DNA of 64,000 nucleotides from an uncultured Candidatus Saccharibacteria bacterium (GCA_964593885.1 CAZQKK010000001.1:169929-233928), one strand, 5' to 3'. Positions 3,955-37,301 are shown, counted from the first letter of the stretch. The notes: generated from the letters alone by a model not told the origin. Numbers and translations: made by a program.

Positions 3955-4151
3955 CCAAGCAGAAGAGAAACCCCAAACACCTCTCCTACCTCATGTCGGG
4001 AACTGGCATGATTGTCTACTGGTGGGGCGTCTGGGGTATCCTAGAGCACTTTCTCCTCCCCGAACACCAGCTCATCAGCTACATCATTGGGATTAGTGCC
4101 GGCCTATCGCTCCTCTACCTGAACGATAAGAGCTTCCGAGAGCTTGGCTGA
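3948..4151 (+). CDS. small 2-TM membrane protein (67 aa) inserted between atpG and atpD
   Basis: The ORF exactly fills the 232-bp atpG-atpD gap. AGGAAG sits 6 nt upstream of the ATG. Two hydrophobic helices (IVYWWGVWGIL, ISYIIGISAGLSLLYL). Confidence 0.4.
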   Translation: MVAKQKRNPKHLSYLMSGTGMIVYWWGVWGILEHFLLPEHQLISYIIGISAGLSLLYLNDKSFRELG

Positions 4152-4179
4152 CGGAACCACCCCACATCACGTACAATAG

Positions 4180-5598
<1,419 letters not shown>

Positions 5599-5601
5599 CC
5601 T

Positions 5602-5841
5602 ATGGCACTCCAGGTAACCGTCATCAACCCTGACGAAGTCCTCTTTGAGGGTGAGGTGGAGTACATCTTAGCTCCCACCCCAAAGGGAACAGTGGGTATC
5701 TTACCTAATCATACCCCGATGTTTGCCGAGCTCAGGCCTGGTGAGGTAATCCTCCATGGAACCGAGGAGAAAAAATACACCATTGATGCGGGCCTCCTGA
5801 AAGTACGGGCTGACGAGGTGACCATTCTCATTGGATTGTAA
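5602..5841 (+). CDS. atpC: ATP synthase F1 epsilon subunit, short form (beta-sandwich domain only)
   Basis: 79 aa, ...VINPDEVLFEGEVEYILAPTPKGTVGILPNHTPMFAEL... The C-terminal helical hairpin is absent. Confidence 0.8.
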   Translation: MALQVTVINPDEVLFEGEVEYILAPTPKGTVGILPNHTPMFAELRPGEVILHGTEEKKYTIDAGLLKVRADEVTILIGL

Positions 5842-5858
5842 AAGCTTTGTATACCCTC

Positions 5859-5882
5859 GAGACTCCCATGAGTCTCTTTTTT
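5859..5882 (+). terminator. intrinsic terminator after the atp operon
   Basis: Stem gagactc / loop ccat / stem gagtctc, followed by tttttt. Confidence 0.6.
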
Positions 5883-6036
5883 GTAGGCTTCCAACTCTTT
5901 TGGATACCTCGCACTTCAATGTATATCTGGCAAAAGTGCGTCTCACCCAGTCTTTCTGGTTTCGGCTTCCAGATAGCAGAATTTCATACACCATCGTACG
6001 TTTAGGTTTTGCAACCTGACCTACACTGTTGACACC

Positions 6037-6066
6037 TATAAGCAAGCTCCCGTTTAATGGTTGTGT
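6037..6066 (+). promoter_or_regulatory. candidate sigma70-like promoter (TTGACA-N18-TTTAAT)
   Basis: This is the only good -35/-10 pair in the 270-bp intergenic region upstream of the 6161 ORF. Confidence 0.25.
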
Positions 6067-6160
6067 ATCTGTAATCTTTACAACTCGAACACCCAACTTC
6101 CCAACCTTTCCACCATTTCACCTTTTATTTGATCCCCTTTATCCGTAACTACCTGTCTCT

Positions 6161-7315
6161 ATGACAAACTTTCGTAAGGTAGTAAGCACGTTACTCTCAG
6201 TGAGTACCGCCCTTACCCTCACCGGCTTCAATTTGGCTGGTACCGCACAAGGTGCCCAGTTGAAAGAAGCGTCAGTATCCCTCGCGGACCCACGTCCAAG
6301 CACTAGTACTTCGCACACAATCACGTTTAAGATTGCAACAACAAACAACGTAGGAAGCCTACAGTTTGTCTACGCAAACACCGCTTCTGGTTCAGGTCTG
6401 CCAACTGGTCTTACCACCAACGCAAACACCACCATTACGACGTTCACCACACCTGCAAACGATGCAGCAAACTGGACCCGTACTAACCCTGCAAACGGCA
6501 CAATGCGTTTCTTCCGTTCTTCAGCTACCTCAGCTACCGCTAACGATACCTGGATTGTTACACTCCCAGCTATCACCAACAACAGCCAATCATCAGCTTG
6601 TGACGCTGTCTCAAACTCAGACTCCTGCTGGGTACAGATCACCACTTACTCAGATACTGGTTGGGCAACCCCAGTAGACAGTACCACCGCTACCTACACC
6701 ATTACAGACTCTGTAACAGTTACGGCTACGGTAGACCCAATCCTTACCTTCACCGTTGCAGCCGTTACCTCTGGTAACCTTGCATCAAACGACACAAATG
6801 CTGGTACTGGTACCACAGTAACTTCTACTGCTACCACCCTGCCATTTGGTAACGTTACCGTAGGTACTCCTAAGATGGCTCAGCACCAGCTGAACACCCA
6901 GACTAACGCTAACAACGGTTACACCATCTACGGTAAGTTCATCACTGCCGGAAATGAAGTAATGGTTGGAAACGCAGTCTCAACAAACAACATCGACAGG
7001 TTCACCGCTTCTTCCGCTACCTGGTCAAGTCCACAGACCTGGGCAGCACCAACTGGTTCAACTGCTAACGTAAACTCTGCTTGGCTTGGTGCTCGTACAA
7101 CCGACACCGACGTTGCAGGATTCAACGTTTCTGACAAGTACGGTCCTCCAGATATTCTTTCAGACTCTGGTTCAGGTAAGGCTGTCATGAGTTCAACAGG
7201 TCCTGATAACGGTTCAACCGCTGTCTACGTTACCTACAAGATTCAGGCAAACGCCTTCCAACCTGCTGACCTTTACACAGGAACATGGGTGTACAACGTT
7301 CTCGCTAGCTACTAG
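6161..7315 (+). CDS. secreted Thr/Ser/Asn-rich protein (signal peptide, low complexity), possible abundant surface or S-layer-like protein
   Basis: N-terminal signal peptide (..LAGTAQGA). Strongly biased T/S/N/A composition. Stand-alone transcription unit with its own terminator. Confidence 0.6.
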   Translation: MTNFRKVVSTLLSVSTALTLTGFNLAGTAQGAQLKEASVSLADPRPSTSTSHTITFKIATTNNVGSLQFVYANTASGSGLPTGLTTNANTTITTFTTPANDAANWTRTNPANGTMRFFRSSATSATANDTWIVTLPAITNNSQSSACDAVSNSDSCWVQITTYSDTGWATPVDSTTATYTITDSVTVTATVDPILTFTVAAVTSGNLASNDTNAGTGTTVTSTATTLPFGNVTVGTPKMAQHQLNTQTNANNGYTIYGKFITAGNEVMVGNAVSTNNIDRFTASSATWSSPQTWAAPTGSTANVNSAWLGARTTDTDVAGFNVSDKYGPPDILSDSGSGKAVMSSTGPDNGSTAVYVTYKIQANAFQPADLYTGTWVYNVLASY

Positions 7316-7333
7316 TTAGAACCTCTTGTCAGA

Positions 7334-7365
7334 AAAGCGCTCCCTCACGGGGGCGCTTTTCGTTT
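7334..7365 (+). terminator. intrinsic terminator
   Basis: aaagcgctccc-tcac-gggggcgcttt stem-loop followed by T-rich sequence. Confidence 0.55.
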
Positions 7366-7384
7366 AGTATATTTCGCCTATACT

Positions 7385-8158
7385 GTGCTCATGGAAGCAA
7401 GAACAAAGTCTATTCTCACCATTTCCCTAGGCGGGTCACTGCTCTTGGCGTTAATCCTTAGCTCTTGGCTCCCCCGATCATGCCCACTTCTCAGAGACCT
7501 GATAACCAACTGCCCTAAGCAAGTTGACCCAACATCACTGCTTTCCCCTGAGATTAAAGAGCTTAACCGTATCCCTCACCAGGATATCTTTAAAGAAACG
7601 GTAGACTTTTCAGTCCCTGCCCAGCCAAATCGTGAAGCTACCCAGGTGAGATTTACCTACCGCGGGAATTTAGAGAAACAGTTTGTCTACCTCAAAGTCA
7701 TAGAGGCAACTGGTGAGCGCGTTATCACCGTGGTTAACCACCCCCTCCTCTTCAAGCTCAACTGGCCGCGCATCTCCACCACACTCCCCAACGCTACCAT
7801 CTACCAGCGCAATCTCACCTACGCCTCTATTGATGAACTCAAGGCAAACCTCCCTAGCAAGGCTTTCTTTGCGGTAGATAGCGTCATTGCTAAAGAGTGG
7901 AACCTTAGCCCTGAGCAGTACACCCTCTTAGACTCACTCACCAGCCTTGATGGCATTGAAACCATAGCTACTAGCTACATCCCCCCAGAGCCTGACGGTG
8001 AGTGGTACAAGTTCTCCCAAACCTTCGATCTCACCAATGCATTTGTTGACGGAATTACCGGAAACCTCAAGTGGTTCCTCAAACTCCCCGGCAATAACGC
8101 AGAGGGTGAGCCATTCAGAATGAGCACCGTGAACGTCGGTTTTACCTCCAAGAAGTAA
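7385..8158 (+). CDS. hypothetical secreted / membrane-anchored protein
   Basis: N-terminal hydrophobic signal/anchor. No recognisable catalytic motifs. Confidence 0.5.
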   Translation: MLMEARTKSILTISLGGSLLLALILSSWLPRSCPLLRDLITNCPKQVDPTSLLSPEIKELNRIPHQDIFKETVDFSVPAQPNREATQVRFTYRGNLEKQFVYLKVIEATGERVITVVNHPLLFKLNWPRISTTLPNATIYQRNLTYASIDELKANLPSKAFFAVDSVIAKEWNLSPEQYTLLDSLTSLDGIETIATSYIPPEPDGEWYKFSQTFDLTNAFVDGITGNLKWFLKLPGNNAEGEPFRMSTVNVGFTSKK

Positions 8159-8223
8159 AAAAGCGCTTGCAAGCTCAAAAATTTCTGCTGATAATGGAAT
8201 TACCCAGTTCGTAGCACCCACCA

Positions 8224-9180
8224 ATGTTTCGCCTTACTCACTCTGTGGTTGGAAAGCTCCTCACCGTCTTTGCCGTAGCACTCACCCTCTTGGCGGTACC
8301 CAGTAAAACAAGCTACGCGGATACCGTTTCGGTTATCCCCCCGCGTTTTGAGCTCCGTGGTAATCCAGGCGACATCATCCAGGAAAAGCTCCGGGTCAGA
8401 AATGACAGCCAACAGAGCATTACCTACGCAATCCAGGTTGAAGACTTCCAGGCTAAGGATGATCAAGGGGGTGTAGACCTCATTGAAGGAGACGATGCCA
8501 CTGCAAAGGGTAGCTACAAGCTTGCTAGTTGGATTACTACAGACCCAGACAAAATTACCATTGCTCCAGGGGATGAAAAGGTTATCACCATCAACATCAA
8601 GATTCCAAAGACAGCAGAGCCAGGAGGTCACTTTGCCTCAGTACTCATCAAGCGTTCTGGAGGCGATGTCACCGGAGGTGCCTCTGTTGATAGCCGTATT
8701 GGAAGCCTCATTCTCCTCCGTGTCTCGGGAGCCATCACCGAGAGCGCGGCAGTAGACAGCTTCAAGGCAGAAGAGAGTATCTCACAGTACGGACCAGTCA
8801 CCTTTGCCCTAAGGACTAAGAATGATGGTAACGTACACGTCCAACCAAAGGGAACCATTGTCATCTACAACACCTTTGGAAAAGAGGTAACCAAGATCCC
8901 TCTCACCCAGGCAAACGTACTTCCAGGTTCAGCCCGTATCGTAAAGACAATCTGGGACGAAAAGAACCTCATCGGTAGGTACACCGCAACCCTTCAGGCT
9001 ACCTACGAGCAGAACACCCAACCAGGAATTGAGCCAAAGACCCTCACTGCCTCAACTACCTTCATCGTATTCCCACTCTGGCTGCTCTGGACCATTATTG
9101 GTCTCATCATCCTCATCTTCCTCCTCATTACTCAGAGAAAAGCTATCAAGAAGGCGCTCAACCGCCTCACGGCTGACTAG
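8224..9180 (+). CDS. cell-surface protein: signal peptide, beta-rich ectodomain, C-terminal TM anchor and short basic tail
   Basis: Signal peptide ..SYADTVS. The C-terminal ...FIVFPLWLLWTIIGLIILIFLLITQRKAIKK is a stop-transfer anchor. The architecture recalls DUF916/DUF3324-type (CscA-like) surface proteins, recalled from memory and not verified. Confidence 0.55.
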   Translation: MFRLTHSVVGKLLTVFAVALTLLAVPSKTSYADTVSVIPPRFELRGNPGDIIQEKLRVRNDSQQSITYAIQVEDFQAKDDQGGVDLIEGDDATAKGSYKLASWITTDPDKITIAPGDEKVITINIKIPKTAEPGGHFASVLIKRSGGDVTGGASVDSRIGSLILLRVSGAITESAAVDSFKAEESISQYGPVTFALRTKNDGNVHVQPKGTIVIYNTFGKEVTKIPLTQANVLPGSARIVKTIWDEKNLIGRYTATLQATYEQNTQPGIEPKTLTASTTFIVFPLWLLWTIIGLIILIFLLITQRKAIKKALNRLTAD

Positions 9181-9192
9181 CCCCGCAGCAGA

Positions 9193-10449
9193 ATGAGAGG
9201 GGTCCCACTGCTGCTTCGCCGCTTGATTGCCGGTAGCCTGATCACCCTGGCTACACTCTTCCCTATACTCCAACCACCGCAGGTTACCCACGCTGTGGGA
9301 GGGCTGGACCTGGCACGTGACTACATTGGAAGCCTCATTCCTGACGCTCCAAACATCTACCACGAGCTCTACTTCGTGCTACCAACAGGTTCAGAGCAGA
9401 TTAAGCCTGATGACTGGATTCTCATAGAGTTCCCCAACTACCAGCTGGTAGACATGGATGAAGCCATCTTCATTGGGAGCTTCAACACCCCAACAGTAAG
9501 CGTTGTAGGTACCACGGTAAGGATTACTGGACTAGCACTGCTGCCGGGAACCGGGGTAACCATCGCCAACGTAAAAGCCACCAACCCACCGGCTTTCGTG
9601 AGCACGGAAGTTAGGATAAAAGTTGCCGAAGATAACACTGGTTCGGTGGTGAGAAACCAAGCTACCATTATTCCTTCTGATACCAGGAGCGTGGTTAACG
9701 CAAGTGCTACCATTGAAACCCCCCTATCCTCACTCTCAATCAGTGGCTACACGGTTCCCTCAGCTTTCGTTACGGCTACAGAAAACGGAGGTGTAGCTGG
9801 TACCACCACCTCAAACGTAAACGGCTTCTTTACCTTCGTTATTACTGCCGCAGACCCTGGAAGTCATACGTACCTTATCTTTTCCACCGACCAAAATAAC
9901 CGCTCAACTGCACAGACCGCCGTCAACGTCTTCCTCATCGCCAATACCCTCACCACTGTTTCGCAAATCCTCCTCTCCTCTACCCTCGCCATTGATAAGG
10001 CTGAGATTGATCCTGGTGAGGTAATAACCTTCTACGGTACAGCAAAGCCAAACTCTCAGATTAACATCTTTGTTGAGGGTCCTCTCAGAACCTACTTCTC
10101 TAACTCCAACGCCGCAGGTGATTGGACCTTCACCCTCAGTGCCCTGGAAACCCAGGGGTATACCCCCGGTCAGTACCAGGTGTATACCATTGTGCAGGAC
10201 AACATTGGTAACCAGAGTATCACCAGTAACACGCTCACCTTCAAGGTGAAAAGCCAGGACAGTAACAACCCTGATCCTCTCTGCGATATTTCACGTGGAG
10301 ACCTCAACTGTAACAGCGTCACAAACCTAGTAGACTTTTCAATCCTACTCTACCACTGGGGCACAAATCACAAAGTTGCCGATATTAACAAAGACGGTGT
10401 GGTAAGCCTGGTAGATTTCTCGGTAATGATGTTCTACTTCACCAACTAG
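9193..10449 (+). CDS. secreted protein with Ig-like repeats and a C-terminal dockerin-like module
   Basis: Signal peptide. Two Ig-like repeats. The last 55 aa, CDISRGDLNCNSVTNLVDFSILLYHWGT...ADINKDGVVSLVDFSVMMFYF, are two calcium-binding D-x-N-x-D-G-x-V-x-x-x-D-F repeats typical of type I dockerin. Confidence 0.65.
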   Translation: MRGVPLLLRRLIAGSLITLATLFPILQPPQVTHAVGGLDLARDYIGSLIPDAPNIYHELYFVLPTGSEQIKPDDWILIEFPNYQLVDMDEAIFIGSFNTPTVSVVGTTVRITGLALLPGTGVTIANVKATNPPAFVSTEVRIKVAEDNTGSVVRNQATIIPSDTRSVVNASATIETPLSSLSISGYTVPSAFVTATENGGVAGTTTSNVNGFFTFVITAADPGSHTYLIFSTDQNNRSTAQTAVNVFLIANTLTTVSQILLSSTLAIDKAEIDPGEVITFYGTAKPNSQINIFVEGPLRTYFSNSNAAGDWTFTLSALETQGYTPGQYQVYTIVQDNIGNQSITSNTLTFKVKSQDSNNPDPLCDISRGDLNCNSVTNLVDFSILLYHWGTNHKVADINKDGVVSLVDFSVMMFYFTN

Positions 10450-10451
10450 AC

Positions 10452-11027
10452 ATGCAACCATCAGTCCTCTCTAAGCTCCCGAAAACACTCCTCTCATGGT
10501 GGAAACACCTGAGAAAGAAACACCGCCTGGTGATCTATGCACTGATCATTGCCCTAGTAACCCTCAGTGCCCCGAGTGTGATTCGTAAGGCTACAGGAGT
10601 GCTCCCAAGAACTGCCGAGTTCTACTTCCTGGATACAGGCACAAGCCTAATTACTGGACAGAGTTTCCCGGTTGAGCTCAGGGTAAAAACTGGTGAAATG
10701 CCCATTAACGCCATGGGCTTCACCATGAAGTTTGACCCCAATAAGATTGAGGTTCAGCGCATGACCACCGACAAATCTTTCTGCACCTTGTTCACCGATA
10801 ACATCTTTGACAACCAGCGCGGCACCGTCACCGTTTCGTGTGGGAGGCCAACACCTGGATTTACCGGAGACTCAATTGCCACGAGGGTAACCTTTAGAGC
10901 CAAGGTACCGGGAACTGCCACCATCTCCATTGAAGAAAGCAGCAGCCTCCTTTTGGCAAATGACGGAAAAGGAAGTAACATTAGTAAGGAAACTCCCAAG
11001 CTAACTCTGTCTATTCAACAGTTCTAG
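10452..11027 (+). CDS. type II membrane-anchored cohesin-like module protein (paralog 1)
   Basis: Basic N-terminus plus one TM helix. The ectodomain ...FPVELRVKTGEMPINAMGFTMKFDPNKIEVQRM...RGTVTVSCGRPTPGFTGDSIATRVTFRAKVPGTATISIE resembles cohesin-type beta-sandwich modules. Confidence 0.6.
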   Translation: MQPSVLSKLPKTLLSWWKHLRKKHRLVIYALIIALVTLSAPSVIRKATGVLPRTAEFYFLDTGTSLITGQSFPVELRVKTGEMPINAMGFTMKFDPNKIEVQRMTTDKSFCTLFTDNIFDNQRGTVTVSCGRPTPGFTGDSIATRVTFRAKVPGTATISIEESSSLLLANDGKGSNISKETPKLTLSIQQF

Positions 11028-11032
11028 TAGCG

Positions 11033-12178
11033 ATGCCAACGACCGTCTCCCGCATTACCGCTCTCGTAGCTAGCATTGCTCTCGTCTTTTTGGTTATTGT
11101 CTCGCCTAAGGTGAGCCGGGTTAGCGCTGCTGCCGATATGGCGGTGAGTACCAACAACACCGTCTACAGCTACGGTGATGTTGTTACCGTCACCATTAGT
11201 GTGAACACTGGTGGACAGTCAGCAAATGCCTTCCAGGGAAAGTTTACCTACCCTGCCAGTCTGTTTGAAGGAGTAAGTGGATCATTTAGCGGCTCAATCT
11301 GTTCGCTCCCTATCCAGGTTCCAGAACCCGTGGGTGGTTCTGCAAACTTCTCATGTGGGAAACCTTCTGGTTTTAATGGCACAGGAACAGTGGCAAGGGT
11401 TACCCTCAGGGTTATTGCTCAAGGTAACGCTGCTCTCCGAATTGATAACTGTGAGGTACTTGCAAACGATGGTCTCGGGACAAACATTACCGGTGGCTGT
11501 TCAGATAAGAACGTCGAAACCCTCGGGCCAAGTCCAAGCCCAACTATTGACCCTAACTATGTCCCAAGTCCTACCCCTACCCCAAAACCAAAGAAGTCAC
11601 CTACCCCCACTCCTTCTCCTACCATCAAACCTTCAAGTAGTGTTACCATCGCTATTGGTGGTCAGGTAACCCCAACCCCAACCATTACCCCACCACCAGT
11701 TGCAGAGCTAGGCGCCACAGAAACTCCTGCCCCTACCGATGAAGCCACAGCAGAGCCCGAGCAAGACCCCCAGAAGCGAACGGTTGGACAGGCAATTCAA
11801 GACATCTTCAGTGCTGGAAGGAATATCGGGAAGCTCGGTGGTAACCTCACCGGGGTAGTTGCCCTCCTCATTGCCGTTGTACCTTTCCTAGCGCTACTCC
11901 TAGCCATTCTCTACCTCGCCTACAGGCTCTACATGATGGAGCGAAGACGTAAGCGAACCCTGGATAGGCTCTTCGAGATGGAGCTCGCTGAACTGGCAGC
12001 CCTTGAAGGAAAGCTAGATCTCCTGGGCGAGAAGGGATCAAAAGGCAAGGCACAGTACCAAGAAGAGTTCAAACGAGCAAAAGAGAACATCCTCAGACAG
12101 CTCAAACCAGACTTTGCCAAACCAGTTGACGGCCCAAAGAAGAGCAAAGAAGAACCAAAGGAAAGTGAGAAGAAGTAG
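11033..12178 (+). CDS. cohesin-like module protein (paralog 2) with P/T-rich linker, C-terminal TM anchor and K/E-rich cytoplasmic tail
   Basis: Signal peptide. Module VTVTISVNTGGQSANAFQGKFTYPASLFEGV...ANFSCGKPSGFNGTGTVARVTLRVIAQGNAALRI. PSPTPTPKPK linker. TM VVALLIAVVPFLALLLAILYLAY followed by RRRKR and a coiled-coil tail. Confidence 0.6.
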   Translation: MPTTVSRITALVASIALVFLVIVSPKVSRVSAAADMAVSTNNTVYSYGDVVTVTISVNTGGQSANAFQGKFTYPASLFEGVSGSFSGSICSLPIQVPEPVGGSANFSCGKPSGFNGTGTVARVTLRVIAQGNAALRIDNCEVLANDGLGTNITGGCSDKNVETLGPSPSPTIDPNYVPSPTPTPKPKKSPTPTPSPTIKPSSSVTIAIGGQVTPTPTITPPPVAELGATETPAPTDEATAEPEQDPQKRTVGQAIQDIFSAGRNIGKLGGNLTGVVALLIAVVPFLALLLAILYLAYRLYMMERRRKRTLDRLFEMELAELAALEGKLDLLGEKGSKGKAQYQEEFKRAKENILRQLKPDFAKPVDGPKKSKEEPKESEKK

Positions 12179-12180
12179 CC

Positions 12181-13389
12181 ATGAGCCCACTCAAAAAAAC
12201 ACCAGCGAGACGCACACCAAGGCCAGCCAGGGAAACTCCTCCACAGGCTGAGGTTGCTTTCGTTTCACAACCTGAGGGCTCTCCAGATAGCAGTTTCCGC
12301 CTCCTTGATGAGCTCAGGCGTGAGCTGGAGAAGGGTAACCACCTCAACGAGCTTCGCGCCGACATCACCCGCTTAGAGGGCGAGAAGCGAAACCTCGAGC
12401 AGCAGGTTAGACACCTCGAGAGTAGGCTCCAGGCACAGCACGGCCAAGCCTCGGCAACCCTTGAGGCACTCAAGAACACCATCCGTGGACAGGTGCAGAG
12501 CCTGGACCAGCAGCTCCAAGTTTTCTCCCTAGACACCTCCCATAGCATTGAAGGACTCCTGGCAGTCCTCCACAGCGCAAGCATCCCAAATCCAGACCTC
12601 AATACCATCCCGGTGCACCACCCAGGTATCCAGCCTGAAAGCGTTGTGAGGCCCACTGCCTATGCACCTACAGCAGTTACCCACACCATCACCCCGCCTA
12701 TCCAACCTGAGCCAGTAGAGACCTTCTTTGAGCCTCTCATTGCAGAGCCTGCCCACCAAACGCACGCTCCAAACCGAAGGTTTAGGAAGATTGCCATCAG
12801 AACCTTCTTCTCTCTCCTTGGTATTGGTCTCATTGGTGGCGGCTACCTTTTCCTTCGCCCAACTACCAAAATCTACCAGGATGGCGAAGTTGCTGGCGCT
12901 GCAACAGGTGCACAAGCAACCCCTGAGCCAAGCACAAGCCCAGACCCGTACGCTGCATCGTTTGCAGAGGTTCCCTTTGAGAAAACCGAATGGGAGCTGG
13001 TAACCGATGCAGACTTCGGCATCGCCGTGCAGTTCCCATCAAATGCCTCTACCAAGGTGAAGGTAATTGGAGGTAACAACCTCTGGTTTGTCAGGAAGAG
13101 CACCTACCTCATGCGCTTCAGTAGAATTGCCACCGATGAAACGCTCGAGCAATGGTGGACCAAGAATTCCTCAACCTACACCGACCAGACCAAGGCAACC
13201 AAGATTACCTACAAGGGCAAGCCAGCAATGTACCTAGAATCCCTCGAGAAAACGCCAACTTCTGGGAGTAGCTACATCATCAAGCACGCTGGCAACATCC
13301 TCACCGTTTGGGTGAAGGATGAGCCCACTACCACCGACGACGGCAAACGCATCTCAAAGATGGTTGAGAGCCTTACCTTTACCAACTAG
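12181..13389 (+). CDS. bitopic membrane protein: cytoplasmic coiled coil, P-rich segment, TM helix, extracytoplasmic domain
   Basis: Heptad-like N-terminus (LRRELEKGNHLNELRADITRLEGEKRNLEQQVRHLESRLQ). TM IAIRTFFSLLGIGLIGGGYLFL. About 190-aa C-terminal domain. Confidence 0.5.
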   Translation: MSPLKKTPARRTPRPARETPPQAEVAFVSQPEGSPDSSFRLLDELRRELEKGNHLNELRADITRLEGEKRNLEQQVRHLESRLQAQHGQASATLEALKNTIRGQVQSLDQQLQVFSLDTSHSIEGLLAVLHSASIPNPDLNTIPVHHPGIQPESVVRPTAYAPTAVTHTITPPIQPEPVETFFEPLIAEPAHQTHAPNRRFRKIAIRTFFSLLGIGLIGGGYLFLRPTTKIYQDGEVAGAATGAQATPEPSTSPDPYAASFAEVPFEKTEWELVTDADFGIAVQFPSNASTKVKVIGGNNLWFVRKSTYLMRFSRIATDETLEQWWTKNSSTYTDQTKATKITYKGKPAMYLESLEKTPTSGSSYIIKHAGNILTVWVKDEPTTTDDGKRISKMVESLTFTN

Positions 13390-13401
13390 CAGAAAGGGAA
13401 G

Positions 13402-14607
13402 ATGGGGGCACTTCTCACCGGCTGGATACCTTGGGTAACTACCCCTCTCGCACTCTTTGCGGGGGCAGTTTTCCTGTACCTTAGCTGGTGCTCAGTTACC
13501 CACTGGTTAGCAAAGCGACAGCTCTTCCACCTGCTGCTCGCGGTACTCCTCCTTACCGCCGCTCCCCTCATATCTCTCACCATCTACATGAGCAACTGGG
13601 GCACCTTGCTTGGAATAGGGGTAGTGGGCTTTGCCAGTTTTGCCGTGAGAGATCTCATTGCAGCCAAGACAACCTACCACATCAGTTTTGTGAGAGGTCT
13701 CATCATTACAGCAGCCGTATGGATTGGACTCACCAGTCTCTTTTCGTACCAGCAGTACCAGAACTACCTCCTTCGGACCGATGAGAGGCTGAGTACCGCA
13801 ATAGAGGTGGTGAGTTCCCGTGAGCAGAAGGCTCGTGAGTTAGCTGCCAAGCTGAGTCAGGAAGACTTTGTCCTCCGCCTTGCACAAGGAGGATCACAAG
13901 CTGCTGCCATCACCGAGCTCCAGCGGTACATGGTGAGCAACCAACTCCAATTTGTTACCGTGGCTTCCACCCAGGGAACTGTACTGCTGAGAGCGCAGGA
14001 ATCAACACGGAGTGGTGATAACATCCTCGACTTCTCACCATGGGTACTCCCCGCCCTCGGCGGTGAAGTGGTGAGTGGAAAAGCTTACGATGAGCGAGGG
14101 CTGCCTACGGTTTCCGCAGCCGTTCCTGTTAGACGCGACACCGTCCCTGTAGGAGTAGTAATCCTTGGCTTCAACCTCAACCAGAACTTCGCCAGCGACA
14201 TCAGGAACCTTGGCCCTGGAGGAGTGGCCATTGGAACCGTTAGGGGTGTTAAGAGCCACAGTACTGGGAGCACCATAGAGAGTACCATTTACAGCTCGGC
14301 GGCTCTGGATGAAATTGTCAGGAAAGAGCTTGCCACTGTTGTCCAGGGTAAGAAACGTGAGAGCTTCAGCGCCCGACTCTACCTTGATAACGAGCCACAC
14401 TTGGTAAAAGCCACGGTACTGAGCACCCTAGTAACCAGCCAGCCAGTTGCAATCATTACCCTTGAAGTAGACAACAAGCTTCCCGTTAACCCGTACGCGC
14501 TCTCCCTCGTGATTATCATCCTGGGCACCGTACTCTTCAACCTCAAGATCTTCATCTCATTTGCTTCACAGCTCCCAACCATTACCCCAAGGAGGCGCCG
14601 TGGATAG
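13402..14607 (+). CDS. polytopic membrane protein with large extracytoplasmic domain (sensor-like)
   Basis: Four to five N-terminal TM helices, a domain of about 270 aa, and a C-terminal TM (LSLVIIILGTVLFNL). Confidence 0.5.
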   Translation: MGALLTGWIPWVTTPLALFAGAVFLYLSWCSVTHWLAKRQLFHLLLAVLLLTAAPLISLTIYMSNWGTLLGIGVVGFASFAVRDLIAAKTTYHISFVRGLIITAAVWIGLTSLFSYQQYQNYLLRTDERLSTAIEVVSSREQKARELAAKLSQEDFVLRLAQGGSQAAAITELQRYMVSNQLQFVTVASTQGTVLLRAQESTRSGDNILDFSPWVLPALGGEVVSGKAYDERGLPTVSAAVPVRRDTVPVGVVILGFNLNQNFASDIRNLGPGGVAIGTVRGVKSHSTGSTIESTIYSSAALDEIVRKELATVVQGKKRESFSARLYLDNEPHLVKATVLSTLVTSQPVAIITLEVDNKLPVNPYALSLVIIILGTVLFNLKIFISFASQLPTITPRRRRG

Positions 14608-15433
14608 GCTACGCACCATTACCACCCTCAGTTTCTTGCTCATTGGGGCCTTAGGGCTTCCCTACCTTGCTGAGCACAAAGATACCACCCTTAGCGTCGC
14701 AAGCACTGCTACGGTTGATCCTAAGCAGGCTGGGCGAACTGCCATCCTCTCACTGTTGCCACCTGTAGGTAAGCTAAACCCTACTAGCAACCAGAGCATC
14801 GCGGTGAAAATAGATACCGGTGGTAGCCTCGTCAAAGAAGTTGCCTTCAAAATCAGTTTCCCACCCGACCACGTAAAGGTTACCGATGTTTCTTTCGGTG
14901 ATTCATTCTGTACCATCTCACCTGTCTACAGCATCAATAACACGCTTGGGACGGTGACCCTCAGCTGCAAGTCAAATAGCCCTGGCCTCCTGGGTCAGCT
15001 TGGCACCGTTGCCACCCTCATCACTACCCCACTCCAGGCTGGCGGGGCAGCGTTCCAGTTTGACCAAACCGCTTCATCGGTAACCGCCCGGGTGAGCGAG
15101 AAAGATGTGCTCTCGTACGCAGTTGATAGAATTGTCACGTACGGAGACAGCCCTGATGACCACATTGTCGTAACCTCGGTAAGCCACCCAACAGGTAGCA
15201 GCTGCTCGTACAAATCCACCGCTGAGCTCGCCTGGCTCAAGCGAGAAGGTACCACCACCTTTGAGTACGGCTGGAACGAAGACCCTGCTGCTGAACCTGG
15301 TACCAGCACCACCTCAACAAGCATCTCTCTCCCAACAAAACCTGGGACCACCCAGTTCTTTACCGTGAGGAGCATTGGTGAGAAAGGGGTAAAGGGCAAG
15401 ATCACTAGCTACAGGGTAGTCAGTTGCCGCTAA
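14600..15433 (+). CDS. secreted cohesin-like module protein (paralog 3). The ORF-track ATG lies at 14561, and the GTG at 14600 reduces overlap with the upstream gene.
   Basis: Signal-like N-terminus LRTITTLSFLLIGALGLPYLA. Module SIAVKIDTGGSLVKEVAFKISFPPDHVKVTDVSFGDSFCTISP...LGTVTLSCKSNSPGLLGQLGTVATLIT. Confidence 0.55.
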   Translation: MDRLRTITTLSFLLIGALGLPYLAEHKDTTLSVASTATVDPKQAGRTAILSLLPPVGKLNPTSNQSIAVKIDTGGSLVKEVAFKISFPPDHVKVTDVSFGDSFCTISPVYSINNTLGTVTLSCKSNSPGLLGQLGTVATLITTPLQAGGAAFQFDQTASSVTARVSEKDVLSYAVDRIVTYGDSPDDHIVVTSVSHPTGSSCSYKSTAELAWLKREGTTTFEYGWNEDPAAEPGTSTTSTSISLPTKPGTTQFFTVRSIGEKGVKGKITSYRVVSCR

Positions 15434-33851: not shown

Positions 33852-34979
33852 TTACAGGTGGTGAGATTGGGTAATGGTAAGGCGTACCGATGCGCCCACA
33901 ACCGGCACAACGAGGAACACGAAGCTTCCTATTGCAGCCAAGCCTGGGCCAATGTAAGGAATGAGACTAACAAGGGTTGGGATGAGCAGACCAATGGTGA
34001 GCGCCACGAAGAGGTCCTTGTTCTTCCGCTGGCTAATTTTAGTAAGCGAAGGAATTCGTGCCATCACCAGTTTACCCAGGAGTACTGCCCCAAACGTACC
34101 TGCAAGAAGTATGGCGAGCGCATAGCTTGCCATGAGCAGAAGCCCAACCCTCCAACCCAGGATGGTGGCAAAGAAGAGGATTGAGAGGAGAGGTAGTCCC
34201 AAGATGGTAGCAAGTCCCGTGGAGTAGGTTTTCCAACTCTCGGTGTAGGCTGCGTTTAGCACCAACCGAGTCTGCTTACCAAGGAAGAGGAGGATGAAAA
34301 AGCCAAAGAGGAGGAGGCTGAAGAAGTTGATAACTGCAAAGTTCCCGTAGGTTTCTTTCTTTGGGGTGTCTTTCGTCACAGAACCGGTAATTTTCACCAG
34401 CTCTTTACCGGTAAACTCATTTGGCGACGTGTAGTGGAGCGAACCTGCAATACTTCCACCCGTAAAGGTGAGGGTAGTAACGTTTGCTTCAACATTACCG
34501 GTTACCTTTGCCGAGCTTGCAATGGTACTGGCAGATACTGAAACATTTCCATCTACCATTCCCGCCAGTATCACCTCGCCAGCTGCTACAGAGAGGTTTC
34601 CCAAAATGTGTGCCGTATCCTTCATCGTAACCTTGCTGGCAACAATGAAGACATCTTGGCCAAATTCGCCATCAAGAACCACTTCCCCAGCGGCAACGTA
34701 TGAGTTGTAGGCAACTCCACCCAGGAGTTCAGCTTTTGAGGCTGCCACAAAGGCACTTCGCCCCACGGTCTTGGCTACGGTTACCGTTTCGCCCACCGCA
34801 AAAAGTTCACCCCTTACTGGCACTTTCATGGCAAGTGTTGTTGCCGAAAAGTAGGCATCTCCAGATACCTCTTCAGTTGGTGAGACAGTTACGCCTTGTT
34901 CAATGGTTGCGGCAAATGCTGAACCTGTCAGAAGAGTTGCAAGTACGAGACTGAGAAACACCTTGGTAAAAAACTTCAT
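33852..34979 (-). CDS. secreted beta-helical-repeat protein with C-terminal polytopic membrane region
   Basis: Signal peptide MKFFTKVFLSLVLATLLTGSAFAA. Repeated G-x-V/G-E-V motifs resemble bactofilin/DUF4097-like beta-helix repeats. Four to five C-terminal TM helices. The start is set at an internal ATG. Confidence 0.5.
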   Translation of the reverse strand: MKFFTKVFLSLVLATLLTGSAFAATIEQGVTVSPTEEVSGDAYFSATTLAMKVPVRGELFAVGETVTVAKTVGRSAFVAASKAELLGGVAYNSYVAAGEVVLDGEFGQDVFIVASKVTMKDTAHILGNLSVAAGEVILAGMVDGNVSVSASTIASSAKVTGNVEANVTTLTFTGGSIAGSLHYTSPNEFTGKELVKITGSVTKDTPKKETYGNFAVINFFSLLLFGFFILLFLGKQTRLVLNAAYTESWKTYSTGLATILGLPLLSILFFATILGWRVGLLLMASYALAILLAGTFGAVLLGKLVMARIPSLTKISQRKNKDLFVALTIGLLIPTLVSLIPYIGPGLAAIGSFVFLVVPVVGASVRLTITQSHHL

Positions 34980-35072
34980 TGGGTTGTTTAGGAGTAGCAT
35001 CCCTAGCATAGCACTTCTCAGAGCACCTGCCATACCTGGTTCATCTACGTTAAACGTAGTTTTGTGGGTATG

Positions 35073-36396
35073 GATGTCGCGCCTCACCTTCACCACCACC
35101 TGCCTAGCGTGCTTTGGGGTAGGAGTATGGCTGGGCACTCCTTACAGAGCTAACCTCCTTCTCCCAGAGCTACTCGCCGCTGTCATTCTCACCATATGTT
35201 CCTGGAGGAAGGCCTGGGTATCTTGTATTGGTTGGGGTACCGGCATCTTACTCGCTACCGGAATTGGTTTCTGTCACGTTGCAACCTACAGATCTAGGCT
35301 ACCAAAGCTCCCAGAACACATTAGGGTCTCTGAGCATGGCACCATTGTGGGATCCCCTGATAACCGTGATGACGAGAACAGACTCACCATTAGGACTAGC
35401 TACCAAGGAGTCTCGGTTACCATCCTGGTACACACACCACCTTTCCCAAAGTTTGCATTTGGGGACGAAGTTACCCTGACCGGCACAGCAGATAGGGCAA
35501 CTCGCATCGAAGACTTTGATTACCCCCTCTTCCTCGAGAGACAGGGGGTAACCCACACCATGAAACGAGCAAGAATCTCGTTTGTCAGCAAGGGAAAAGA
35601 AGGAATCACCAGCACTCTCTACAGCATCAGATCTCTCCTTGAAACAAGAATAGCCAACAGCATCCCAGAGCCTGAGGCATCACTCCTTAACGGTATCCTT
35701 CTCGGGAGCAGACAGCAACTATCAGAGGAGTTGGTGGTACAGCTACGCAAAACAGGAACAAGTCATGTTGTAGCTATTAGCGGAGCAAACATCACCATCG
35801 TGGTAGAGCTTCTCGTCCTACTCATGCCGCTCTACTCCCGTACCAGCCAGCGTAATGCAACCATTCTCATAGGTTTTGCTCTCAGCATTGCCACTGGGGC
35901 TTCGGCAAGTGTCGTGAGGGGAAGTCTTGCAGCTGCACTGGGTGCCAGTGTCAGAGCCGCCGGAAGGCCTAGGAACTCCCCCAACATCGTCCTGTTACCA
36001 GCTGTATGCATGCTGATTGCAAACCCGCTCTACCTCCGCGCAGACCCCAGCTTTCAACTCTCACTCGCAGCATACTCAGGCATCATCTTCCTCACTCCTC
36101 TGGTCCAGCGCGTTTTTTCACTGCCCCTCAAGTACATACCTGAAGTCTTGCGTGCTACCTTTACCGAAACCTCTGCAGCCACACTCGCAACCCTCCCAAT
36201 TAGCATCACAAGCTTCGGGAATGTCAGCTGGATAGGCCTGATTGCTAACCCAGCTCTGCTCTGGATGCTCCCACTCATCACTGCCTTTGGTGGAGCCTAC
36301 CTCGTGTTCCCAAACCAAGTAACTACCTCCATTCTCTGGATACTGCTCCACAGCTTTCTCAGTAGCATCCGTGTTTTTAGCAAGCTCCCATCATGA
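35073..36396 (+). CDS. comEC: competence protein ComEC/Rec2, membrane channel part (DUF4131 + competence domain)
   Basis: Polytopic protein. The region ...ISGANITIVVELLVLLMPL...SVVRGSLAAALGASVRAAGR matches the ComEC core. The start is set at ATG 35073. Confidence 0.75.
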
Positions 36397-37301
36397 AGAA
36401 AGCAATTATTACCATCATCGGAGCCCTTATTATCTCACTTTGCTTTCAGGGTGTAACTCGCCAAGAACCACACAGTGAAATCCGCCTCTGGATGCTCAAT
36501 GTTGGCCAAGGTGAAAGCATGCTCATACAGACACCCTCGGGGAAGTACCTCCTCTTTGATGGTGGTCCAGGTTCAGCGGTACTTGCTGAGCTTGGAGAGG
36601 TGCTACCCATCTGGAAACGCACCATTGATGTGGCTGTACTTTCACATCCACATGCCGATCACCTGCGTGGCCTCATTGCAGTTCTCGGTAGGTACCACGT
36701 TGATGAAATCTGGTCATCGGGGTCGCAGTACGAGAGCAGCGAATTCGCAACTTGGGTGCATCTCATTGCCGATAACCACATTCCATCACGCAACCTGGCT
36801 TTCCCAGATACTGCTTCACTAGGCGAGCTTGAAATCAAAGTACTCCACCCAACTAAACCGGTTGTGGGTAAGGTTCCAAAAGAAACACACGATGGGAACC
36901 TATCACTCCTCATCTCCTACGCTAGTCGCTCAATCTTACTTGCAGGTGACCTTGCTGAAAAACATGAAAGAGAGATAGCTAGCGCGTGCCAAAACAGTGG
37001 CTGTAGTTTAAGCTCAGATATCCTCCAAGTTGCACACCACGGCTCTGCCAGTGGTAGCTCAACTCCCTTCCTCAAGGAGGTTAGTCCTCTCGTTGCTTTG
37101 ATCCCCGTGGGCGAAGGCAACAAGTTTAAACACCCGAGAGCAGAAACCCTTGAAAGGCTCAGCAACTCTCACGCCGACGTATTTAGAACAGATAAAGATG
37201 GAAGGGTGCTCGTCGAAATTTCAGCAACCGAGATTACCGTTACCACTACATCCGGAAAGCGAGCTATTTACTCCCAAAAACCGCAACCTGCGCCGACGTA
37301 A
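36393..37301 (+). CDS. ComEC C-terminal metallo-beta-lactamase-fold domain encoded as a separate ORF
   Basis: HxHxDH motif (LSHPHADHLRGL) and ...VAHHGSASGSS. Own ATG overlapping the upstream stop (ATGA), and an N-terminal hydrophobic segment. Confidence 0.75.
   Translation: MKKAIITIIGALIISLCFQGVTRQEPHSEIRLWMLNVGQGESMLIQTPSGKYLLFDGGPGSAVLAELGEVLPIWKRTIDVAVLSHPHADHLRGLIAVLGRYHVDEIWSSGSQYESSEFATWVHLIADNHIPSRNLAFPDTASLGELEIKVLHPTKPVVGKVPKETHDGNLSLLISYASRSILLAGDLAEKHEREIASACQNSGCSLSSDILQVAHHGSASGSSTPFLKEVSPLVALIPVGEGNKFKHPRAETLERLSNSHADVFRTDKDGRVLVEISATEITVTTTSGKRAIYSQKPQPAPT

Follow-up and report, generated by a model that had tools for sequence, protein, structure and literature searches.

We describe here three divergent cohesin modules, and the dockerin gene that adjoins them, in a 64,000-nucleotide (nt) stretch of DNA from an uncultured, ultrasmall Candidatus Saccharibacteria bacterium (GCA_964593885.1, CAZQKK010000001.1:169929-233928; hereafter 'the window', with positions counted from its first letter). 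The modules are encoded by the fifth, sixth and ninth members (g5, g6 and g9) of a nine-gene, same-strand cluster (g1-g9; 6161-15433, plus strand throughout) that lies between the F-type ATP synthase operon, immediately upstream, and a tRNA-Met gene. We hold it close to certain that all three are genuine, if divergent, members of the cohesin family, of the non-cellulosomal kind; they constitute a subfamily of these cohesins marked by a conserved cysteine (Cys) pair, and not a separate fold or family. Directly upstream of g5, the product of g4 ends in a dockerin, and the cohesin genes belong to an envelope operon whose gene order is conserved across classes of the Candidate Phyla Radiation (CPR). 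The conserved operon and its adjacent dockerin, both absent from a preliminary description of this DNA, matter more than the cysteines to which that description drew attention; the three cohesin proteins and the dockerin protein are probably partners in a cohesin-dockerin complex of the cell surface, one that is not cellulosomal.

Cohesin identity of the three modules

The preliminary description had proposed three related modules with a Cys pair at equivalent positions, and this is borne out by our alignments. The strings on which it was based are present in the open reading frames (ORFs) 10452-11027 (g5; KSFCTLF...VTVSCGRPTPGFTGD), 11033-12178 (g6; GSICSLP...ANFSCGKPSGFNGTG) and 14561-15433 (g9; DSFCTISP...VTLSCKSNSPGLLGQ), and the three products have in common a module of ~130 amino acids (aa), with pairwise BLASTP E-values of 3e-10 (g5 versus g6), 7e-11 (g5 versus g9) and 6e-6 over 85-149 residues. 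Pairwise identity is 24-31% by BLASTP and 23-30% in the alignment of the three, and both cysteines fall in the same alignment columns, among just 14 that are invariant across the three copies. The modules are paralogues, with a similarity far beyond chance; no fourth copy was found in the six frames of the window with a hidden Markov model/profile built from these three.

The first of the cohesin proteins, g5 (10452-11027), has 191 aa: the sequence KHLRKKHR comes before an N-terminal signal-anchor helix (aa 22-47), which is followed by a cohesin module (aa 56-185, nt 10617-11006) whose Cys pair is formed by C111 (codon at 10782-10784) and C130 (10839-10841). The second, g6 (11033-12178), is a protein of 381 aa, comprising a signal peptide, the cohesin (aa 35-165, nt 11135-11527), a Pro/Thr-rich linker, a transmembrane helix (~aa 262-295) and a basic coiled-coil cytoplasmic tail; it has two Cys pairs, C90/C108 (11300-11302 and 11354-11356) and C140/C156 (11450-11452 and 11498-11500). 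For the third, g9, the preliminary description had taken a start at 14561 (TTG); the most likely start is instead the GTG at 14600, since this is preceded, at a distance of 4 nt, by AGGAGG (14590-14595), and orthologous proteins begin MDR or MGR. So delimited, g9 (14600-15433) has 277 aa, with an N-terminal anchor helix, the cohesin (aa 48-180, nt 14741-15139), a C-terminal beta domain of ~90 aa, and the Cys pairs C104/C123 (14909-14911 and 14966-14968) and C202/C276 (15203-15205 and 15425-15427). The basic stretch ahead of the g5 anchor helix, the RRRKR that follows the C-terminal transmembrane helix of g6 and the N-terminal anchor of g9 together predict, by signal and anchor sequences and the positive-inside rule, that all three modules are extracytoplasmic.

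The fold is best seen in g5, for which an AlphaFold2 model built from 16 orthologues (mean predicted local distance difference test score, pLDDT, 78) consists of the helix 22-47 followed by nine strands. When this model was compared with the PDB using Foldseek, ranks 1-33 were all cohesins (E 3e-10 to 5e-6), led by CohA2 of C. acetobutylicum (6kgf, E 3e-10), with target-normalised template-modelling scores (TM-scores) of 0.64-0.80. Non-cellulosomal cohesins feature within the top matches, namely A. fulgidus 2xdh (0.73) and C. perfringens 2vo8 (0.80, the highest value) and 2jh2. We also considered, and rejected, identity as a BslA-type immunoglobulin (Ig)-like hydrophobin or a generic Ig-adhesin: BslA (4bhu) and the CLIPPER adhesin domain (9ifr) are beta-sandwiches too, but appear at ranks 34-48 with TM-scores of 0.37-0.50, have no sequence homology to the modules and no link to a dockerin context.

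Comparisons of sequence profiles lead in the same direction. An exhaustive search with a profile of 12 module sequences retrieved 8,911 cluster representatives at E ≤ 1e-3 (2,980 at E ≤ 1e-10) and matched, at E 2e-54, the protein P0022, whose Pfam Cohesin score is 124.5 bits; in another protein, P0029, the N-terminal domain reaches 45.6 bits. Using hhalign against an alignment of nine Cys-less cohesins (five of its nine rows tested Pfam-positive), the g6-type alignment matched at 99.6% (E 3e-24) and the g9-type alignment at 97.9% (E 5.5e-13), such that the earlier proposal of a cohesin-like beta-sandwich is supported for g5 by fold and for the other two by profile. Other searches returned less: NCBIfam had no match for the three cohesin proteins, PDB sequence searches with module profiles gave marginal cohesin matches (E 0.08-0.9) and no solved Cys-pair cohesin, and a word-index homologue search with the g6 module gave nothing at E ≤ 1e-3, its orthologues being taken from genomic loci instead.

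Because the modules are in this way sequence-continuous with Pfam-positive cohesins, they do not make up a family of their own. The suggestion of a 'distinct and undescribed' family is too strong: the profile reaches Pfam-positive cohesins, and orthologues differ as to whether they have C,C or F,G at the two positions (see below). No description of Cys-pair cohesins, or of this operon, was found in the searchable literature. Proteins of the cohesin operon are all annotated as 'hypothetical' in the databases checked.

A neighbouring dockerin and a conserved operon

The gene directly upstream of g5, g4 (9193-10449), encodes 418 aa, with a signal peptide, Ig-like domains (Big_13/Big_6; 33.7 bits for Big_13 in Pfam) and a C-terminal dockerin (aa 364-418, nt 10282-10446) that has a Cys pair, C364/C373. 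Its Dockerin_1 score, at 22.7 bits, falls marginally below the cut-off of 22.9; nevertheless, the C-terminus has the two tandem F-hand Ca-binding repeats that typify dockerins (PF00404), each with the pattern D-x-N/D-x-D/N-x6-D followed by a helix (DLNCNSVTNLVDF and DINKDGVVSLVDF, at aa 374-413), and this double Ca-loop motif is the only one in the six frames of the window. A two-repeat dockerin likewise ends 50 of the 52 g4 homologues in CPR loci (...DLNxDGxVNLVDFSI..YW...DLNxDGKxDLVDFSIMAYYWTG), directly upstream of one to three cohesin genes, and a homologue from Saccharibacteria passes the Dockerin_1 cut-off at 25.7 bits. The dockerin of g4 is, then, a genuine one.

The dockerin tails of the 52 homologues (from loci L001-L060) contain either no cysteine or two, the two being placed either as C-x8-C around Ca-loop 1, or with one upstream and one in the inter-repeat linker; such Cys-pair dockerins occur in 35 loci, and Cys-pair cohesins in 10.

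The operon is well conserved. The whole cluster is found in order in distinct assemblies (a soil 'PAT4' metagenome-assembled genome (MAG), a 946-kb ENA scaffold, a Patescibacteria MAG from enhanced biological phosphorus removal (EBPR) and a lake MAG), across which g5 identity ranges from 36 to 80%, the full nine-gene cluster being kept down to 36-44%. Over a wider range, with each GTDB species represented by a single genome, 56 loci were recovered, of which 38 are labelled as Patescibacteria or a CPR lineage (Saccharibacteria, Paceibacterota/Parcubacteria, Berkel-, Jorgensen-, Falkow-, Wolfe-, Doudna-, Uhr- and Taylorbacteria, and Gracilibacteria), six as 'bacterium' and 12 as 'uncultured Gammaproteobacteria'. 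The usual order is a g3-like gene, a g4-like gene (Ig-dockerin) and then two cohesin genes; in Wolfebacteria and Saccharibacteria loci, Pfam finds a weak WxLIP_PGBD, Big_6 with Dockerin_1 (25.7 bits), and Cohesin (24.9 bits, over its cut-off) with Big_13. Outside the window's own lineage, the cohesins of the operon are Cys-less. The 12 loci with the gammaproteobacterial label (L009, L010, L012, L013, L016, L019, L029, L033, L048, L050, L057 and L058) are third-party annotation (TPA) bins with the same operon, one of them on a 772-kb contig; the label is doubtful, and may well be wrong.

Cohesin-dockerin pairs constitute the assembly system of the cellulosome and are very strong protein tethers. 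From synteny, we lean by a modest measure towards the view that the cohesins of the cluster bind the dockerin of g4; they may also bind dockerins encoded elsewhere in the genome. Binding would tether g4 to the cell surface in a non-covalent, Ca-dependent manner, giving a minimal scaffold-and-anchor system without enzymes, in which anchors of three different types would keep the cohesins at the outer face of the cytoplasmic membrane: an N-terminal signal-anchor for g5; a Pro/Thr linker, C-terminal transmembrane helix and cytoplasmic coiled-coil tail for g6; and an N-terminal anchor for g9, which is the part split off from a membrane protein combining dCache and cohesin.

The most serious alternative, if an unlikely one, is that the modules have the cohesin fold but are not dockerin receptors, serving instead as a stalk or spacer, or binding a host glycan, peptidoglycan or another protein of the cluster; the g4 dockerin would then bind something else, and any disulfide would still be structural. 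Such a view could draw upon the three cohesins but single dockerin of the window, the Pfam Cohesin scores of g5, g6 and g9 (all below the cut-off), the fusion of one class of cohesin to a dCache ligand-binding domain and not to a scaffold, and the fact that many, indeed most, non-cellulosomal cohesins have no known partner. It does not readily account for a gene with a C-terminal dockerin staying beside cohesin genes across CPR classes despite identities of 26-40%; it is this persistent adjacency, otherwise hard to explain, that makes us favour a functional link between cohesin and dockerin.

The cysteine pair

The preliminary description had allowed that the cysteines might fail to be conserved in homologues, and this is not what we find. 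Across 16 orthologues of g5, the most distant of them 37% identical, the pair never varies; all four cysteines of g6 are invariant in seven orthologues, and all four of g9 in six sequences. A broader sample of homologous domains, drawn from 168 proteins and 60 genomic loci and reduced to 289 at 90% identity (nr90), behaves in an almost strictly all-or-none fashion, with both cysteines in 126 domains, neither in 160 and a single one in three. By mutual information with average product correction (MI-APC), the two Cys columns rank first of 8001 column pairs (z 15.8); after them come 59-75 and 59-73, which set the segment 55-59 beside strand 73-75, and some confidence in the analysis comes from a further coupling, 35-73, which recovers the known contact between strands 3 and 6 of the cohesin sheet.

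In domains without the cysteines, the residue is I, L, V, F or P at the first position and G or A at the second, a packing pair of one large and one small residue. The exchange can be seen in a single comparison, between P0083 (C,C; SICSLW...RFSCGLPNPGY) and a Wolfebacteria protein of locus L035 (F,G; SIFSLW...NFEGIALNPGF), which align at E 1e-73 over their full ~560 aa, so that the swap from C,C to F,G has taken place inside one orthologous architecture. In a neighbour-joining (NJ) tree with the two Cys columns masked, Cys-pair domains fall in several clades (g5-, g6- and g9/dCache-type). They were found just in loci labelled Patescibacteria, or with uninformative or doubtful labels, and, as the preliminary description held, the pair does not occur in the canonical cohesins examined, nor in the Pfam-positive ones (4ums_A, for example, has K and F at these positions).

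Four architectural forms of the Cys-pair subfamily were recognised among the best 150 representatives of the profile search: an anchor plus cohesin of ~185 aa (g5-type, the most numerous); a g9-type form of ~275 aa; a form of ~400-550 aa with cohesin, a 'THPxxxxWY' domain, Ig, transmembrane helix and coiled coil (the g6/P0083-type); and a form of ~680 aa in which a transmembrane helix, dCache, two further transmembrane helices, cohesin and an 'SHPxxxxWY' domain follow one another. In g6, the P0083/L035 architecture (cohesin, Ig, Big_13, transmembrane helix, coiled coil) recurs in a related, shorter form. g8 overlaps g9 by 8 nt, and the two together are a split form of the fused ~680-aa proteins (P0085, P0098, P0071 and the C-terminal half of P0029), with the break in a short cytoplasmic loop between two transmembrane helices. 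The fused proteins join a ligand-sensing domain to a cohesin without a cytoplasmic output domain.

The domain of ~90 aa that follows the cohesin in many CPR proteins starts S-x-(T/S)-H-P-x4-W-Y and ends ...YYFH(V/I)...ID..PP; examples are P0083 (aa 186-270), L035:9947-11683 (aa ~190-280), P0085, P0098 and P0029, for which Pfam gives weak fn3/DUF7743 hints. The C-terminal domain of g9 (nt ~15160-15430) is a diverged version that has its own Cys pair, C202/C276.

We consider it likely that the conserved cysteines form an intradomain disulfide, because the pair is all-or-none, is the top coupling and swaps with a hydrophobic-plus-Gly pair. The notion of a 'disulfide-stabilised' variant in the preliminary description is thus upheld as to covariation, which is of the kind that a disulfide predicts, the bond itself being our inference. 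In the g5 model, C111 lies in coil between strands 99-105 and 118-120, and C130 at the end of strand 125-131. With a disulfide joining the two, a loop of ~19 residues would be closed, and the stretch immediately following strand 4 would be fastened to strand 6 at its C-terminal end; the loop would enclose the strand 5-6 hairpin, which, judging from published topology, lies at the edge of the sheet used by canonical cohesins to bind dockerin. The disulfide would take the place of the hydrophobic-plus-Gly packing pair of the Cys-less orthologues, and may confer thermodynamic or mechanical stability on a load-bearing surface tether.

Paired cysteines are a wider trait of the cluster. Its exported proteins each have zero, two or four cysteines, mostly as close pairs (further examples being C147/C156 in g1, C33/C43 in g2 and the C364/C373 of g4), and the pairs of g1 and of the g4 dockerin are likewise all-or-none among homologues, which suggests that the lineage may oxidise exported thiols.

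It is improbable that the cysteines are free thiols, part of a metal site or engaged in intermolecular bonds, for instance as a covalent 'lock' to the Cys pair of the g4 dockerin. This last idea has some appeal, as the dockerin of the same lineage does have a Cys pair, as do the dockerins at all ten loci with Cys-pair cohesins; the apparent want of a thiol oxidase among the ORFs scanned (see below) would suit this group of alternatives in general. However, the states are nested: 17 loci have neither pair, 25 the dockerin pair only, ten both, and none a cohesin pair with a Cys-less dockerin. The 25 loci in which Cys-pair dockerins stand beside Cys-less cohesins show that the dockerin pair is independent of the cohesin pair, and the nesting argues against an obligatory cohesin-dockerin disulfide, which we regard as unlikely; the pattern would suit a lineage able, or obliged, to form disulfides in its exported proteins. 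A metal site made of no more than two cysteines would be a poor one. The swap with a hydrophobic-plus-Gly pair, couplings that set the two segments side by side, and the closely spaced, all-or-none pairs of the other exported proteins all speak for an intradomain bond. That the shared cysteines are a chance or purely phylogenetic trait of recent paralogues, with no structural role, as could be imagined from three copies of possibly shared ancestry in one operon and from the roughness of the NJ/Fitch analysis, is extremely improbable given that paralogues only 23-30% identical have kept both, and that the 126 Cys-pair nr90 domains span at least four architectures, with decay to a single cysteine in just three cases.

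The explanation as a whole, joining a cohesin fold, a disulfide and a dockerin-based tether, is one that we favour, if with reserve, as a number of observations weigh against it. On Pfam Cohesin (PF00963), g5 scores 22.2 bits, under the cut-off of 24.1, and g6 and g9 are without a match; Cys-pair homologues mostly score 0-26 bits, P0083 (26.0) being the sole one to pass. The AlphaFold2 model of g9, from a six-sequence alignment, has a pLDDT of 42.9 and is unusable, leaving the g5 model as the evidence for the fold. In that model, a simple register for the strand 5-6 hairpin would put C130 opposite residue 115, so the loop would have to be irregular. No Dsb/VKOR-type thiol oxidase was seen in a non-exhaustive scan of ~30 ORFs in the 64-kb window. 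The co-occurrence of the two cysteines in the nr90 domains (Fisher p = 2e-79) ignores phylogeny, and the ~7 changes of state inferred by Fitch parsimony on a rough NJ tree are weak evidence. To these must be added the excess of cohesins over dockerins, and the scarcity of known partners, discussed above.

The wider cluster and comparison with known systems

The remaining members of the cluster are also candidates for envelope proteins. g1 (6161-7315) is a secreted, T/S/N-rich protein of 384 aa and g2 (7385-8158) a protein of 257 aa with an N-terminal transmembrane helix; neither belongs to a known family, with no match in Pfam, PDB or PHROG searches, and NCBIfam, PHROGs and Pfam were uninformative for g1, g2 and g7 alike. 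The extreme C-terminus of g1 is conserved (QPADxYxGTxVYxVxAxY), and may resemble the final strand in subunits of the fimbrial, SCPU or WxL type. Tandem paralogues of g1 are present in three related genomes (L003:2831-3985 and 4041-5126; L005:1-1128 and 1064-2281; L008:4480-5739 and 5802-6902), and a further homologue (L014:6271-7449) is without the Cys pair. The first gene of the core block, g3 (8224-9180), encodes 318 aa with a signal peptide, a WxLIP_PGBD (DUF916-type) domain (33.3 bits in Pfam, cut-off 27.3), a second beta domain and a C-terminal transmembrane anchor, in the form of a hydrophobic helix followed by a basic tail. g8 (13402-14607) is a multi-transmembrane protein of 401 aa with an extracytoplasmic dCache_3 domain (33.5 bits) and no output domain.

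The remaining gene, g7 (12181-13389), is a conserved member of the cluster encoding 402 aa, with an N-terminal coiled coil (Pfam gives weak coiled-coil matches only), one transmembrane helix and a C-terminal extracytoplasmic domain; its orthologues occupy the same position in loci L001, L003, L005 and L008, where orthologues of g1 and g2 are also found. The coiled coil of g7 is cytoplasmic and precedes its transmembrane helix, and a highly charged coiled-coil tail follows the transmembrane helix in g6 (aa ~296-381), in P0083 (aa 480-554) and in a 579-aa protein of L035; the coiled coils of g6 and g7 might pair on the cytoplasmic side.

Elsewhere in the window, an ORF with a CxxC motif (34903-36396), considered as a thiol oxidase and rejected, is ComEC, which is present as two adjacent ORFs, 34903-36396 (Competence/DUF4131) and 36393-37301 (metallo-beta-lactamase); on the minus strand, the ORF 33852-35138, which overlaps ComEC, encodes a bactofilin domain. 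Neither has a bearing on the cohesins.

The envelopes and host-attachment machinery of CPR bacteria are largely unknown, and the operon spans Saccharibacteria, Paceibacterota, Gracilibacteria, Doudnabacteria and others. We speculate, in the knowledge that this is doubtful, that the block of WxLIP-like protein, Ig-dockerin and membrane cohesins may be an undescribed, phylum-wide surface apparatus of Patescibacteria, in which the tether would hold an Ig-repeat fibre or adhesin, possibly fed by g1 and coupled to dCache sensing, for attachment of the epibiont to its host; Cys-pair cohesins might then be a version adapted to oxidation and reinforced mechanically, in lineages that live in oxic habitats. 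Should the operon prove to be a cohesin-dockerin surface tether, it would supply a candidate for CPR surface architecture that can be put to the test, as well as a set of orthogonal cohesin-dockerin pairs and a natural template for stabilising cohesins by disulfides; if the Cys pair merely stabilises an ordinary non-cellulosomal cohesin, the gain would be a modest improvement in annotation.

Cultivated Saccharibacteria need several surface adhesins for epibiotic growth, a dockerin-domain protein included (PMC10633639). We considered whether the cluster could be linked to transposon sequencing (Tn-seq) of Southlakia epibionticum, and rejected this, as the dockerin protein that is essential there, SEML1_0315, has 927 aa and a different genomic context; nor was an orthologous cluster found in the Tn-seq supplements when searched for cohesin, dockerin and the Pfam accessions.

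Cellulosomal cohesins of types I-III (PF00963; 6kgf, ScaC of A. cellulolyticus, 4uyp, and OlpC of C. thermocellum, 4dh2) share with the CPR modules the nine-stranded beta-sandwich (Foldseek E 3e-10 to 1e-6), profile homology and a dockerin-bearing partner gene. They differ in that the CPR modules have the conserved Cys pair and Pfam scores below the cut-off, and reside in a CPR host and not in a cellulolytic Firmicute; where they mention disulfides or cysteines, the passages of a 2025 structural review of cellulosomes refer to engineered disulfides only, and to no native ones. The CPR system is likewise without the enzymes, carbohydrate-binding modules (CBMs) and SLH/sortase anchoring of cellulosomes, each protein having one cohesin on its own transmembrane helix. 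A cellulosome was accordingly rejected: the dockerin protein is Ig-like without a catalytic domain, there is a single cohesin per protein, and there were no glycoside hydrolase (GH) or CBM matches in the cluster.

Closest in function are the non-cellulosomal cohesins (A. fulgidus 2xdh; C. perfringens 2jh2, 2vo8 and 2w1n, from glycoside-hydrolase/toxin complexes), surveyed by Peer et al. (2009, cited in PMC10066038), with which the modules share a cohesin fold outside plant cell-wall degradation, the best TM-scores and a presumed role in tethering. None of these examples is a single, membrane-anchored cohesin encoded beside WxLIP-like and dCache proteins in a conserved operon, and no Cys pair is reported for them, a comparison made by reports and not by their sequences at these columns.

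A third parallel is offered by the Csc/WxL clusters of Lactobacillales. The CPR cluster differs from these in being without WxL and LPXTG proteins (no WxL domain, PF13731, was found by Pfam in g1, g2, g7 or nine g1 homologues, and no LPXTG protein among the ORFs of the cluster), and assembly appears to proceed by way of cohesin and dockerin instead. What g3 shares with them is a DUF916/WxLIP domain and a C-terminal transmembrane anchor, and both systems are operons of non-covalently assembled surface proteins in envelopes of the monoderm type.

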